Assembly (NCBI GenBank): GCA_029858305.1
Contig: JAOUFI010000001.1
Span: forward strand, 179,031 to 243,030
Direction: 5' to 3'
Length of the DNA: 64,000 bases
Source: Candidatus Thorarchaeota archaeon
GTDB taxonomy: Archaea; Asgardarchaeota; Thorarchaeia; Thorarchaeales; Thorarchaeaceae
Below the pieces are notes generated by a model. That model did not search any database and had not been told where the DNA came from. It was given only the letters and a program-made list of their open reading frames with translations. Within the stretch, counting starts at the first letter, position 1, and every line of letters starts with the position of its first letter. Below are positions 4,865 to 49,550 of this stretch, piece by piece. A program made the position numbers and the translations under genes.

Positions 4865-5101
4865 TCATTTTCTATGTATATAGAGAACCTGTCCGATGAG
4901 TTTCTTGGTATCAGACTCTTTGTTTGGGCGAATTGCAACATATGGGTGTTTGACTGGTCCAAAAACGTCGACAATGATGCCTATCTCTTGCGCCCTCTTA
5001 TCAAATACAATCGATTTGTTGCCTACAGGTGGAACCTTCTCAGTACGTACAATGATTGTTCCGCGATGCGAAATCTGAAGTACTGTTCCGAGCCGTCTCA
5101 A
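4865..5101 (-). CDS. gar1: H/ACA RNP protein Gar1/Naf1
   Basis: IGIIVDVFGPVKHPYVAIRP motif; TTG start. Confidence 0.9.
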   Translation of the reverse strand: MRRLGTVLQISHRGTIIVRTEKVPPVGNKSIVFDKRAQEIGIIVDVFGPVKHPYVAIRPNKESDTKKLIGQVLYIHRK

Positions 5102-40561: not shown

Positions 40562-40699
40562 TGGTGGGGACGGTGGGATTTGAACCCACGATCGACGAGT
40601 TACGCCAAGACGACGGTCGTTTATTGACCCCGCTCATTTCCGGTGCGAATTGCACCCAGATCTGGAGCCCGTCGCCTTACCGGTCTAGGCCACGTCCCC
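40562..40699 (-). tRNA. tRNA-Trp(CCA) with 61-nt canonical intron (40601..40661)
   Basis: GGGGACG/CGTCCCC acceptor, ACGGG-CTCCAGA-CTCGT after splicing, TTCAAAT, CCA. Confidence 0.92.
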
Positions 40700-43925: not shown

Positions 43926-44044
43926 GATGGCGGCCATAGTCCTGAGGGTCTACCTGAACTCGGCCGAACTCAGAAGTCAAGCCTCAGAACGTCGTGTGGA
44001 AATGTGCATTGCGCGAGCGTGCGACAAGCCCACGAGCTGCCACA
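43926..44044 (+). rRNA. rrf: 5S rRNA (stand-alone)
   Basis: TGGCGGCCATAG...CCGAACTCAGAAGTCAAGCC...GCTGCCA terminal helix; TATA-like CTTAAAA about 25 nt upstream, T-tract downstream. Confidence 0.88.
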
Positions 44045-44115
44045 TTTTCCTTCTCATGACATCTTCTAAAATGACTAGATAGAAGCCATTAAAAGACTAA
44101 CACAAGAAGACGGAT

Positions 44116-45253: not shown

Positions 45254-45613
45254 ATGGGAATAGTATCAAAAATACTTGGTCTCGCCTTAGCTGGAATGGG
45301 TTTTGTAGTCCTCTTCTATGGAATGAGTACCACTGATGCCCTGTCGTTCCTTTGGTCATTCATGGGTCTCATCATCATGTCTCTTGGATTCGCCTTAATC
45401 ACTGGAGGGAAACAAGCTGAGAAGAAACCTCCACCTCCAACAGTCACAGAGATTCGCTGTAGTAGCTGTGATTTCAAAGAGATACGTGATTTCAAGAAAG
45501 GCGATTATGTCTTGATGCCTGTTGAGGAAACGTGTCCAAAGTGTCAGAGCTCAATGACTATTGAGGGCGTCTACATTGTAAGGGAAGAACCAGAAGTTAA
45601 ATACAATGTCTAG
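45254..45613 (+). CDS. Membrane protein with C-terminal zinc ribbon
   Basis: Two TM helices, CSSC...RDFKKGDYV...CPKC. Confidence 0.8.
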   Translation: MGIVSKILGLALAGMGFVVLFYGMSTTDALSFLWSFMGLIIMSLGFALITGGKQAEKKPPPPTVTEIRCSSCDFKEIRDFKKGDYVLMPVEETCPKCQSSMTIEGVYIVREEPEVKYNV

Positions 45614-46509
45614 GGTTTCTTCGTCAGAATCACAGGACCCTCTTCAGAGATGAAGATTGTGTGTTCGGCCTGACTAACTGGCCGGCCTTTCTTCTCTATT
45701 TGAAGAGGTAGCCCTCGAATGGCTTTTGCTCGGATGAGTGCTCTAATCTCATCGACAATATCTACTTCCTTATCAGAGGACCCGATCCATCTCGATGCAA
45801 ACGGCAGAGGTCCATATTTTTCTCGAAGGTACACTCTTAGCTTCTCTGTTGTGCCTGAAATTGGTGTATCCAAACCAGTATTAGCAAAAATGTAGACATA
45901 CTCACTATCAACTACAGTGCCAATCCCACTAGTCGCAAATGGTTCAATAGCATAATACTCTCCAACTTCGACCTTGGATGCTCCGCGAACTTTAGTATTT
46001 GGAACTTGTTTTCCTCCGTGAAGTTGATATCGCCTAATAGAATGGCCTGTAAGGTTAGAAATTGGTCGAAGACCATATGCTTTAACGACAGTCTCAATCT
46101 TCGCTCCTACATCTCCTAAAGATGCGCCTGGCTTCATCATAACAAGGGCTTCTTCGAGGGCATCTTCTGTAGCCGCAATGAATCCTTCAAGTGTTCCATC
46201 AATATCAACAGTCAGTGCAGTGTCAGTGATGTAGCCATCTATATGCACACCAATATCTAACTTGACGAGCCCAAATTCTGGTATCTCACTACGGTCACCT
46301 TTGGGGGATGTAGAATGTGCTACGATATGGTTGACTGAAACATTACACGGAAATGCAGGAGTGCCACCATATTCCCGTATCTTCTTTTCCGCAGTTGTAC
46401 AGATTTTTATTATTCTCGCCTTTGGTTCAATCATCTCACTGATTTCTTTGAGAACCCGTGCAGCAATCTCTCCGGAACGGACTGCGGATGGATGAGGATT
46501 GGTGACCAT
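45610..46509 (-). CDS. map: Type II methionine aminopeptidase, copy 2
   Basis: AFPCNVS, KLDIG, DTA, GH...LHGG, AIEPF, QAEHT. Confidence 0.93.
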   Translation of the reverse strand: MVTNPHPSAVRSGEIAARVLKEISEMIEPKARIIKICTTAEKKIREYGGTPAFPCNVSVNHIVAHSTSPKGDRSEIPEFGLVKLDIGVHIDGYITDTALTVDIDGTLEGFIAATEDALEEALVMMKPGASLGDVGAKIETVVKAYGLRPISNLTGHSIRRYQLHGGKQVPNTKVRGASKVEVGEYYAIEPFATSGIGTVVDSEYVYIFANTGLDTPISGTTEKLRVYLREKYGPLPFASRWIGSSDKEVDIVDEIRALIRAKAIRGLPLQIEKKGRPVSQAEHTIFISEEGPVILTKKP

Positions 46510-46564
46510 GATACCACCGTACATAGACGAAATCAACAACCACTCTTAAGCGGTTCCATGCCCG

Positions 46565-47482
46565 CTATAGAATTTCATCGTTCCTTCGTGTCGATACTAT
46601 TGCACTCTCTTCTCCAACAAATATACTATGTTCGAACTGTGAAACCATACCATCCTTGCCCTCAAGCAGGACCGGATATCCATGAATGGCACCAGCTCGT
46701 TGCAGTGTTTTGAGAGCAATATCTACATCTATCTCTCCAACTTTACCAAACAACCAGCGAGAAGCCCATGGTAGAGATTTGAACAACTGGCGAGATGTAT
46801 TACGAACTCTGAGTGCGGAGTGGTCGAGTTTTTTCCTATTCTTAAAATCATTCGAGAAGATATACGCAGTCTGCCCGCTCTTGATTGTCCCATTCCCGTT
46901 TGTGGCAAATGGCTCAATTGCATAAGTTTCACCCGGATTCATTGTGGGAGATATCTTTTGCCCAATATTTGGTACATTCTTCCCCGCATGAAGTATCCAT
47001 TGTTTAAGCTGATGCCCCGACAACTGGTGAACTGGCTTGAGTCCATGTTTCTTTATCGTGCGTTCGATTGCTTCGCCCACCTCTCCCACACGAACGCCTG
47101 GACGGACTGTTTCAATAGCAGATTCCAGGGCATTCTTCGCCGCAGCAATATATGTTTCATGGGATCCATCTAAGTCAATAGTGAGTGCGGTATCAGAAAT
47201 ATAGCCATTAACATGAGCTCCAATGTCCACTTTTACAAGACCCGTATCAGGAAATACCTTTGAATCAGCATGGGGACTTGTGTAATGTGCAGCCTGATTA
47301 TTGATAGATACATTACAGGGGAAAGCAATACCTGTGGCGCCAAACTCAAGTATCTTCTCTTCAGCAAGTCTACATATCTTCAGGATTTTTACTCCAGGTC
47401 GGACTTCGTTCTCCACAAGACTGAGAACCCGTCCTGCGATTTTTCCAGCCTTCAAGAAATCGGGATGGGGTGTTGCAGTCAC
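46565..47482 (-). CDS. map: Type II methionine aminopeptidase, copy 1
   Basis: AFPCNVS, AAHY, KVDIG, DTA, GH...LHAG, AIEPF, QFEHS. Confidence 0.93.
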   Translation of the reverse strand: MTATPHPDFLKAGKIAGRVLSLVENEVRPGVKILKICRLAEEKILEFGATGIAFPCNVSINNQAAHYTSPHADSKVFPDTGLVKVDIGAHVNGYISDTALTIDLDGSHETYIAAAKNALESAIETVRPGVRVGEVGEAIERTIKKHGLKPVHQLSGHQLKQWILHAGKNVPNIGQKISPTMNPGETYAIEPFATNGNGTIKSGQTAYIFSNDFKNRKKLDHSALRVRNTSRQLFKSLPWASRWLFGKVGEIDVDIALKTLQRAGAIHGYPVLLEGKDGMVSQFEHSIFVGEESAIVSTRRNDEIL

Positions 47483-47534
47483 AGTTAATCACTTACACTA
47501 TCAGCAGCGTGATGGCGTATTTAAACTTCAGATT

Positions 47535-47818
47535 AGGAGAAAGGTGTCGGCACCTGTATCCCTACACACTAACTCCCAGCATCACGGCTTCAGAAATGCA
47601 TCTGGCTCCGCTGAGCTGTCTCGGGCGGGGAATGATGATGCCGACCAGCCTGTCAATGTACGAGACCAGGGTGACCCGCAGTTCATCTAAAGGACAATCA
47701 TCCCCATCATGCGAGTCCGTTATGGCTCGTCCTTTCGGTTCTTGACAGGCGATTGTTCAAGAGAATAAGACCTCTTGAACATATAGTTCAGTGTACGAGG
47801 AGTTATTAGCATTCCCAC
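47535..47818 (-). ncRNA. Candidate unclassified structured non-coding RNA
   Basis: No credible ORF; TATA-like CTTTAAC at 47845-47839; at least six 7-10 bp helices, with G-U pairs favouring the minus strand. Confidence 0.55.
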
Positions 47819-48200
47819 TTGGCGCGAAATCGTCACATGTTAAAGCATCAATATTCAATTATCACTCAAGTTTTATGGTGGTAACGACATCTTCAAATAC
47901 GCTGGGGAAGCAGCTCAGCTTGTACAGTACCGCTGCAGTTAATCAGCCGTACTTTGCAAATCATCATATCACATAATCATTAGCGCCACGTATCCCCCGA
48001 CAGTGTTCAAAGTTGAGATGAACGGGAGAGCTCGCGCAAGTCTTAGGACTATTATCATTCACAGGATCATCACATCACGGTTATCATATCACACTCCAGA
48101 CATGGAATAGAATGAAAGTCGAGGTAAACTGAATCCAAGCATAGGTATGAGGCATAGGCCTAGGAAGTAGAAAGACGCAGGCATATTCCAACTTGGTCGA

Positions 48201-49550
48201 TTGGCGAGGGCACGTGGTAGTACAGCACAGGAGACGTGCATTAAAATAGGAACAGATTTCGACCAAAGTACAGCCAAATATGTAATCAGAGCAAGAATTG
48301 AGATAGATGGCGTGGTCGACAAACCGGATGTTGTAGGAGCTGTCTTCGGGCAGACAGAAGGATTACTCGGAGAAGATCTTGACCTACGAGAGCTTCAGCG
48401 AACTGGTCGAATAGGAAGAATTCAGATTGCTATTAGAACACAGGGTGGTAACAGTACAGGTGAGATTGTAATCCCTGTATCACTCAATAAGACCGCCACT
48501 GCAATACTTGCAGCTGCTTTAGAAACAGTAGACAGAGTTGGACCATGTACGGCCAAAGTGATTTTGGAGAAGCTTGAAGACATTCGGGGCGCGAAAAGAC
48601 GAAAGGTTGTAAGCAGAGCGATTAGCATTTTAAAGGGCTGGGAGGAAGACATTTCTCCAGGCACTGAGGAAATTACGACTGCGGTCACCAAGGGTCGCAA
48701 GATTTCCGTGTCTAAATATGGTCCTGATGGATTACCCGCAGGTCCAGATTTAACAGGTAGCTCAGAAATCATTATCGTTGAAGGTCGTGCGGACGTCATC
48801 AACCTCATGAAATGTGGAATAATGAATACAGTCGCAGTAGAAGGAACCCATGTTCCAAAAACAATAATCGACCTCACAAAGAAGAGGGGGAAGAAAGTAA
48901 CAGCTTTTCTTGATGGGGATAGAGGTGGAGACCTCATTTTGAGAGAACTTATGCAAGTTGCTAATGTTCATTATATTGCTCGAGCACCCGAAGGAAAGGA
49001 AGTTGAGGAACTTACCAAGCGTGAAGTGATGAAAGCGCTTCAGACACAGATACCTGCGGAGCAAGCATTATCCCTCGTTCAAGATAGAAAAACGGCAATA
49101 AAAGCTAAGAAACACGAAACTAAGAAGACCATTTCATCTAGGTCTGCAGGAGCAAAAGCGCGTAGAGAACCAAAAAAGGTCGAAGACATTCCTCCAAGAC
49201 GTGAAAGACCCCCCGAACCCATTAGTAGACCTGCAATATCTCGGAGAGCGCCTGTATCTGTTGATGAAGCATATGTATCCAAGATTAAAAGTATCAAAGA
49301 AGCCTTCAAGGCAGTCCTATTCAACGCAAATAAGGAAGTCATAGTTGAGTGTGGCGTGGCAGAGTTAGCTAAGAAACTTGAAGAAGAAGATACAGTTCCT
49401 GCAGTGGTTTTCGATGGGGTAATAACGCAACGTCTAGTGGACATTGCTGCTAAAAAGCAAACAACGCTCCTCATTGGAGCAGCAGTTGCAGACATTGAAA
49501 ACAAGCCCAACGGTCTACTGATCGTCACTTTTGATGATTTAGGTCAATAA
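48201..49550 (+). CDS. dnaG: Archaeal DnaG (exosome-associated, TOPRIM)
   Basis: KPDVVGAVFGQTEGLLG, VEGRADV, DGDRGG, FDGVITQRL; exact start uncertain. Confidence 0.95.
   Translation: MARARGSTAQETCIKIGTDFDQSTAKYVIRARIEIDGVVDKPDVVGAVFGQTEGLLGEDLDLRELQRTGRIGRIQIAIRTQGGNSTGEIVIPVSLNKTATAILAAALETVDRVGPCTAKVILEKLEDIRGAKRRKVVSRAISILKGWEEDISPGTEEITTAVTKGRKISVSKYGPDGLPAGPDLTGSSEIIIVEGRADVINLMKCGIMNTVAVEGTHVPKTIIDLTKKRGKKVTAFLDGDRGGDLILRELMQVANVHYIARAPEGKEVEELTKREVMKALQTQIPAEQALSLVQDRKTAIKAKKHETKKTISSRSAGAKARREPKKVEDIPPRRERPPEPISRPAISRRAPVSVDEAYVSKIKSIKEAFKAVLFNANKEVIVECGVAELAKKLEEEDTVPAVVFDGVITQRLVDIAAKKQTTLLIGAAVADIENKPNGLLIVTFDDLGQ

Follow-up and report, generated by a model that had tools for sequence, protein, structure and literature searches.

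The minus strand of the gap between two map genes and dnaG carries a real, conserved and stand-alone structured RNA gene (approximately 47780-47540), and there is good reason for confidence that its product is a box H/ACA guide sRNA, the Thorarchaeota counterpart of HgcG/Pab40 of Pyrococcus abyssi, Pf7, Afu-4 and the Haloferax sR-h45. It is most likely a new, divergent member of this known guide family, and not the ribozyme, pseudoknotted RNA or riboswitch that a first-pass annotation of the DNA had put forward.

The window, by which we mean the whole stretch of 64,000 nucleotides that was analysed, lies on contig C205 of a 3.04-Mb archaeal assembly, and the RNA is located within the 718 nt that separate the map pair from dnaG. 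The genes relevant here are:

46565-47482 and 45610-46539, minus strand: tandem M24 methionine-aminopeptidase genes (map)
48201-49550, plus strand: dnaG, encoding a Toprim-domain protein
4871-5095, minus strand: gene for the H/ACA RNP protein Gar1 (Pfam PF04410, 42.4 bits, above the cut-off)

Nop10, the other of the two H/ACA proteins searched for, is also encoded in the genome (68.4 bits). The Rfam matches obtained over the window were one tRNA and one 5S rRNA; the 5S rRNA gene is free-standing (43926-44045, plus strand), and the tRNA gene (40565-40699, minus strand) is 135 nt long and so presumably contains a long intron. Between 47300 and 48300 nothing meaningful was found with Rfam at E <= 10, and no relevant family matched at cut-off.

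The sequence and every pairing quoted in the first-pass annotation are present in the window, and its description of the region as a stand-alone, non-coding structured RNA on the minus strand was borne out. The minus strand folded with a predicted energy of -103.2 kcal/mol (z = -2.8), which 1 of 200 shuffles matched; for the plus-strand fold z was -1.76. Open reading frames on the plus strand overlap the region. Homologues were assembled into non-redundant alignments of 28 (A1) and then 43 sequences (A2), and for both RNAalifold returned a nested structure. The A2 consensus comprises 89 pairs in 13 helices, with 95.8% of cells paired against 34.5-40.9% in slid controls, and double changes were seen in 42 pairs (231 cells) as opposed to 14-21 pairs (28-43 cells) when the partners were slid; none of 500 shuffles reached the observed values for pairing or double changes. 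Many of the consensus pairs are G-U and therefore fit the minus strand only, as had been claimed. RNase P RNA (157.1 bits, contig C44) and SRP RNA (95 bits, contig C50) were detected elsewhere in the genome and, because their family models match these other contigs, the candidate is neither of them, also in agreement with the original view.

The detailed structure that had been proposed was upheld in part, with three of its seven helices supported by the 43 A2 homologues. The hairpin 47781-47772/47763-47754 is paired in 82.6% of cells with double changes in 8 of 10 pairs, the helix 47750-47742/47656-47648 is 95.9% paired with double changes in six of nine, and the pairing 47645-47639/47552-47546, presented as an alternative, forms part of a 10-bp helix that is 97.4% paired with double changes in seven of its ten pairs. 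Of the remainder, two were rejected, namely 47816-47810/47634-47628, paired at background level (44.5%), and the terminal hairpin AGGUG/CACCU, paired in 36.3% of cells; the others lacked support. The helix 47735-47729/47695-47689 (66.3%) competes with better-supported pairs. The crossing helix 47805-47799/47576-47570 (70.8% paired) pairs only in its invariant UAAC/GUUA part and has no double changes, and the crossing helix 47643-47635/47585-47577 (76.9%, one double change) clashes with both the 10-bp helix and a K-turn, so that the pseudoknot, with crossing helices that are not conserved in A2, lost its support. Moreover, the 5' strands of the 47816-47810 and 47805-47799 pairings fall in the promoter-like motif. 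A new pseudoknotted ribozyme, or a large non-coding RNA of unknown class, might have been expected from the size and strong conservation of the RNA, its invariant internal loops and the failure of any Rfam family to match the window at cut-off, but with the crossing pairings unconserved (one paired in 44.5% of cells, the other with zero double changes) and two of their strands in a promoter-like motif, and with homologues that match an H/ACA family and an anatomy and target that fit a guide RNA, this explanation now appears very improbable. The features of the guide RNA reading, in the order in which the minus strand is read, are:

47821-47828, minus strand: conserved upstream motif UUCGCGCC, kept in most of the 43 A2 sequences
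47802-47816, minus strand: predicted promoter, with a BRE-like GGGAAUG and a TATA-like CUAAUAAC
47754-47781, minus strand: hairpin 1, all that remains of H/ACA motif 1 (the basal helix and an 8-nt loop)
47648-47750, minus strand: domain 2, in which the closing helix 47750-47742/47656-47648 surrounds a mini hairpin (47738-47731) and motif 2
47660-47730, minus strand: H/ACA motif 2, with lower stem ACGAGCC/GGUCUCGU (47730-47724/47667-47660)
47723-47715 and 47675-47668, minus strand: pocket strands of motif 2, AUAACGGAC and GUCACCCU
47703-47692, minus strand: apical hairpin of motif 2, above the upper stem UCGCA/UGCGG and the K-turn-like loop UGAUGG/UUUAGAUGAAC
47657-47659, minus strand: ACA box of motif 2, immediately 3' of the lower stem (ACA in 42/43 sequences, AUA in 1/43)
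47545-47646, minus strand: domain 3, in which the closing helix 47646-47637/47554-47545 surrounds motif 3
47560-47630, minus strand: H/ACA motif 3, with lower stem CCCCGCCC/GUGUAGGG
47622-47616 and 47574-47568, minus strand: 5' guide GAGACAG and 3' guide AGUUAGU of motif 3
47606-47587, minus strand: hairpin capping motif 3, whose upper stem is CUCAGCG/UGCUGGG
47608-47607 and 47583-47582, minus strand: sheared GA pairs of the motif 3 K-turn, which has a 3-nt bulge
47555-47557, minus strand: ACA box of motif 3, 2 nt (AU) past the lower stem, with the 3' strand of the closing helix coming next (ACA in 42/43, AUA in 1/43)
47536-47544, minus strand: pyrimidine-/U-rich tail CCUUUCUCC, the probable termination region; relatives have U-rich tracts after the last helix

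The motif boundaries represent our reading of the consensus structure. According to Muller et al. (2008), the lower stem of an archaeal H/ACA hairpin measures 7 bp or more and the upper stem 5-6 bp, with 5-11 nt in each strand of the internal loop. In motif 2 the lower stem is 7 bp long, the pocket strands measure 9 and 8 nt and the upper stem is 5 bp; motif 3 has a lower stem of eight positions including mismatches, pocket strands of 7 nt each and an upper stem of 5-7 bp. The helices of motif 2 (7-10 of the consensus) are 92-96% paired, the GA/UGA of its K-turn is present in 43/43 sequences and its pocket cores AACGGAC and GUCACC are almost invariant. Domain 3 is the most widely conserved part of the RNA, and motif 3 includes the consensus pairs 290-296/325-331 and 299-304/312-319 (alignment numbering); the GA pairs of the motif 3 K-turn occur in 43/43 sequences, GAGACAG in 36/43 and AGUUAGU in 40/43. 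An apical K-turn, and with it a site for L7Ae predicted from the sequence, is common to motifs 2 and 3 in all 43 homologues. Neither ACA box is terminal; after each, an extra closing helix contributes its 3' strand. Counted by hand, the distance from the base of the upper stem to the ACA is 16 nt in motif 2 and 17 nt in motif 3; the rule reported for Pyrococcus is 14-15 nt between the ANA and the target uridine, and sR-h45 is described as functional when as many as 17 bases precede the ACA box.

Hairpin 1 was interpreted by comparison with the relatives, in 36/43 of which an insert of about 60 nt at this position contains a pocket, a K-turn (CUGA ... AUGAKG) and an ACA, the last of these in 36/36 of the sequences that have the motif. 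Motif 1 is replaced by the plain hairpin in the window sequence and five close relatives, and is also lacking at a further locus (L060). Most relatives have all three motifs in about 295-300 nt, and motif 1 would have been lost in the window species and its closest relatives. A different reduction was seen in G037, the only genome of a second family (loci L033/L068), where motifs 1 and 3 are kept and motif 2 is missing. Other classes of RNA were considered and rejected. For a C/D-box guide, inspection by eye showed that the K-turn strands run on as helices, leaving no free guide beside a D box, and that conservation is lacking in the D-like boxes. The hairpin with an AGC and a bulge was also considered as a group II domain V or a U6-like element, a reading that was dropped because a K-turn accounts better for its GA-GC; no match to an intron family was obtained. 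U3-like and RNase MRP-like readings were unsupported and were abandoned after the match to HgcG.

The ends of the transcript were predicted from motifs and spacing. The sequence CTAATAAC is present in 29/43 homologues, with close variants in the remainder, and lies at a nearly fixed distance from hairpin 1 (21 nt in 32/43 sequences, 22 nt in seven, 23 nt in three and 15 nt in one) across a spacer whose sequence is not conserved. A like motif, AAUGCUUAAAAC, is found 23-27 nt upstream of the 5S rRNA gene of this genome, and others precede several tRNA genes, that of tRNA-Glu being GCAAUCUUAAUAAC. Because of this resemblance and the constant length of the spacer, we place the promoter at 47816-47802 and predict a transcription start near 47780. 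Such a start, close to hairpin 1, would match that reported for the Pyrococcus Pab40 transcript, whose first nucleotide is also that of its first H/ACA motif. The annotation had the RNA begin at GUGGGAAUG with CTTTAAC as TATA box, which is probably wrong as the CTTTAAC box is not conserved; likewise the length of about 285 nt counted from 47818 needs revision, the RNA being shorter at its 5' end. The motif UUCGCGCC is situated outside the predicted RNA, some 5-12 nt before the BRE-like element, and may be the site of a regulator. Contigs assembled from metatranscriptomes of relatives cover 47642-47750 in three of four runs (X1, X2 and X13, from two studies); these contigs amount to 0.06-0.10 of the stretch and are silent on strand, ends and level, and offer a hint that the RNA of relatives is expressed. 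Parts of the stretch that they leave uncovered are uninformative.

The position of the RNA upstream of map, on the same strand, would also be compatible with a riboswitch or leader controlling the map genes. However, in two genomes (G032 and G037) the downstream gene, identified from ORFs and Pfam, is a convergent metallo-beta-lactamase-fold gene instead of map, and the neighbour at the G031 locus (L034) was judged by eye to be of the same kind. In G037 the end of the gene upstream of the RNA encodes an AAA+ lid domain. A promoter-like motif and a U-rich end belong to the RNA itself, and in the interval before map there is a separate TTTAAATA box. There is no constant linkage to map, and therefore what would be expected of a leader is not seen; we regard this possibility as extremely remote, in keeping with the earlier suggestion that the RNA is independent of map.

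The distribution of the RNA was determined at increasing depth. BLAST with 47500-47860 found the region in 24/27 genomes of the genus, in 31/36 of the family and in the one genome that represents the second family, and gave no match in 23 other genomes of the phylum. A pattern derived from the element was present in 42 public contigs (32 labelled Candidatus Thorarchaeota, two Promethearchaeota, seven 'uncultured archaeon' and one 'archaeon'). A covariance model, R1, was made from the 3' domain (domain 3; 106 positions, 33 pairs), and this gave one strong match per genome in 80/87 genomes of the class, including 24/24 of the high-quality genomes and 17/17 genera; the seven genomes of the class that had no match are 52-81% complete. 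Of 151 genomes sampled from the phylum, R1 matched all 28 that belong to the class and, outside it, 45/123 at E <= 1 and 30/123 at E <= 0.001 (counted by hand). The out-of-class matches are weaker, single and full-length, and some families of the phylum gave none (e.g. 0/13 and 0/5 genomes).

The link to a described RNA family came from these distant loci. When 18 out-of-class R1 loci were scanned with Rfam at E <= 0.1, eight matched RF00064 (HgcG) over the whole 276-position model, on the same strand as the R1 match and overlapping it, with scores of 43, 40.7, 33.2, 33.1, 29.2, 28.2, 21 and 19.3 bits (E = 5e-9 and 2.5e-8 for the top two); the other 10 had no RF00064 match at this threshold. 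Within the class, RF00064 matched at the coordinates of the element in two loci, L028 (25 bits, E = 0.003) and L033 (23.8 bits), and gave no match in the other 10 class loci scanned. No locus reached the gathering cut-off of 77 bits, and the organism's own genome, including the window, had no RF00064 match at E <= 10. The family link is consequently transitive, because the scores are below the cut-off and the window sequence itself has no HgcG match. The first-pass annotation had named a match to a known Rfam family as the result that would overturn it; the Rfam check returned nothing relevant for the window itself and sub-cut-off RF00064 matches for the loci of relatives, so that this outcome was reached indirectly, through homologues. 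What HgcG is known for is a series of H/ACA motifs: Pab40, which is HgcG and the counterpart of Pf7, is described as having three motifs that guide the P. abyssi 23S pseudouridines 2588, 1932 and 2016. Three tandem motifs, the last of them predicted to target helix 69, were also found here, in 36 of the 43 sequences. These homologues, together with the K-turns, the ACA boxes and the complementarity to helix 69, fit a guide and took the place of the original proposal of a new ribozyme or riboswitch.

The target of motif 3 was predicted from its pocket, before the site had been viewed, as ACUAACU-UN-CUGUCUC. This literal sequence is absent from the 23S rRNA of the organism, in which CTGTCTC does not occur; the ACUAACU half led to the site, and the pattern was relaxed after the site had been seen to ACUAACU, 2-5 bases and GUCUC. 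The relaxed pattern has a single match in the 23S rRNA, ACUAACU-AUGA-GUCUC at LSU 2037-2052, which is the loop of helix 69, and this is the sole match in the 3.04-Mb genome on both strands; our estimate of the number of such sites expected by chance is about 7e-4 for the rRNA and about 1.5 for the genome. Motif 3 and helix 69 form 7 + 5 Watson-Crick pairs that leave UAUG (or AUGA) unpaired. A simple target scan ranked helix 69 second, after a site with G-U pairs and offsets, and a first strict scan had missed it because a maximum of three unpaired bases was allowed. Motif 3 would then act on the helix 69 loop at LSU U2043 and/or U2045 (E. coli 1915 and 1917). For this comparison we equate H. 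marismortui 1956 with helix 69 position 1915 of E. coli. The helix 69 pseudouridine at P. abyssi 2016 (H. marismortui 1956) is reported to be made by motif 3 of Pab40 and by Afu-4 (PMC2584109), and sR-h45 is described as having a 3' stem-loop that makes both helix 69 pseudouridines and requires four unpaired target bases, 'UVUN'; the papers concerned with the Pab40 and sR-h45 targets are PMC2377435, PMC2584109 and PMC7075261. The unpaired UAUG of the duplex described here fits this reported requirement.

Comparison between genomes provided one further indication of guiding. In the Thorarchaeota genomes G000 and G031 the guide GAGAC is opposite GUCUC in helix 69, and in three other lineages (G039, G043 and G038) the guide GAGAG is opposite CUCUC, the G038 locus reading GAGAA; this is one compensating guide-target change. 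In G062 helix 69 reads UUCUC and the guide is still GAGAC, a change without compensation. At two loci, L123 (G038) and L126 (G037), the 23S gene is interrupted next to UUAAGG after helix 69, which suggests an rRNA intron or insertion. For motif 2, ACCC and AACGG can pair with GGGU and CCGUU around LSU U2713/U2714, the only such site in the rRNA, and we tentatively propose that it acts on this GGGUUUAG stretch of the peptidyl-transferase centre; the spacing of the pairing is irregular, and target scans with motifs 1 and 2 returned several near-equal sites. The equivalent site is described as proposed for motif 2 of Pf7/Afu-4 and as shown for stem-loop 1 of sR-h45.

These irregularities bear on whether the RNA still guides. 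It could instead be an RNA of an H/ACA-derived K-turn RNP that has given up guiding and, for example, chaperones folding or acts as a scaffold while ribosomes are assembled, with the enclosed ACA boxes and longer spacing reflecting the changed function. The clamping of the ACA boxes by extra closing helices, distances of 16-17 nt in place of 14-15, the irregular pairing of motif 2 with its target and the one uncompensated change in helix 69 would all accord with this. It is nevertheless unlikely, as the pocket strands are near-invariant and complementary to the known target of the family, one guide-target change is compensating, and sR-h45 is reported to work with four unpaired target bases and at distances up to 17.

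If, as we favour, the RNA is an H/ACA guide, a BRE/TATA promoter of its own (47816-47802) would drive minus-strand transcription of about 240 nt (approximately 47780 to 47540). Each working motif would be a hairpin made of a lower stem, an internal-loop pocket, an upper stem of 5-7 bp and an apical K-turn for L7Ae, with an ACA box for Cbf5 after it, and on each motif L7Ae, Cbf5, Nop10 and Gar1 would assemble. The strands of the pocket would pair with 23S rRNA on either side of the target uridine, allowing Cbf5 to convert it to pseudouridine; motif 3 would serve helix 69 and motif 2, more tentatively, U2713/U2714.

Between the RNA and dnaG lies a second conserved block of about 220 nt (47874-48091, read as minus strand), found across the family, rich in UGAUGA/GUGAU and ending in an invariant UAUUUGAAGNUGUCG. 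Its fold has 14 consensus pairs only, nine of them with double changes, and no Rfam family matched it; a weak C/D-box-like match to sR11 within it (47942-47984, minus strand, 16.6 bits, E = 2.3) has a D-like box that is not conserved in relatives. The block is absent beside the RNA in G037. It is conceivable, though rather doubtful, that Thorarchaeota and perhaps Asgard archaea have a variant H/ACA architecture, in which motif and ACA are clamped by a covarying closing helix, and that the neighbouring block is a partner or co-transcribed RNA of an undescribed kind. In such an architecture the ACA would lie in an internal loop and not in a free 3' flank, a little like the H box in the hinge of eukaryotic snoRNAs, and the way in which Cbf5 reads the box would change.

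What is new here is mild: the presence of the RNA across Asgard archaea, the closing helices around the ACA boxes and the lineage-specific loss of motifs. Within a literature search of limited scope we found no description of H/ACA sRNAs of Asgard archaea. The result removes a false lead, there being neither a new ribozyme nor a riboswitch at this locus, and adds to annotation a single-copy RNA gene that is present in almost all genomes of the class and is missed by Rfam cut-offs. The seed alignments (A2 and A3) and model R1 extend the HgcG/sR-h45 family across Asgard archaea, and the guide reading predicts pseudouridines of Asgard ribosomes in helix 69 and near the peptidyl-transferase centre.

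Among known systems, the RNA most resembles HgcG/Pab40/Pf7/Afu-4 (RF00064; Thermococcales and Archaeoglobus), with which it shares tandem H/ACA motifs, an apical K-turn or K-loop, an ANA box and a last motif that targets the helix 69 loop of 23S rRNA, here by complementarity; the mini hairpin of domain 2 may be compared with an extra stem-loop that is described for motif 2 of Pab40, where it belongs to the 5' guide strand. It differs in that its kin are too diverged to reach the family cut-off (at best 25 bits within the class), in the extra covarying closing helix around each motif and its ACA, in the 16-17 nt to the ACA and in the reduction of motif 1 to a plain hairpin in the window species. 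Pyrobac-1 (RF01722) matched the motif 3 region of two phylum loci with 36.1 and 34.3 bits (cut-off 40), although it is a single element of 60 nt and has no match on the window. The Haloferax volcanii sR-h45 is, by its description, alike in having two working stem-loops, the 3' one for both helix 69 uridines via UVUN and the 5' one for the GGGUUU site near the peptidyl-transferase centre, and the window RNA would agree with it in both working motifs and in their order; in sR-h45 they are separated by a 56-nt linker, whereas here the motifs are adjacent and preceded by a vestigial 5' hairpin. Finally, the H/ACA snoRNAs snR191 of yeast and U19 of human are reported to guide the equivalent helix 69 pseudouridines (PMC2584109), but these have the eukaryotic hairpin-hinge-hairpin-tail arrangement, with H and ACA boxes and no K-turn, and are likened to the present RNA by function.
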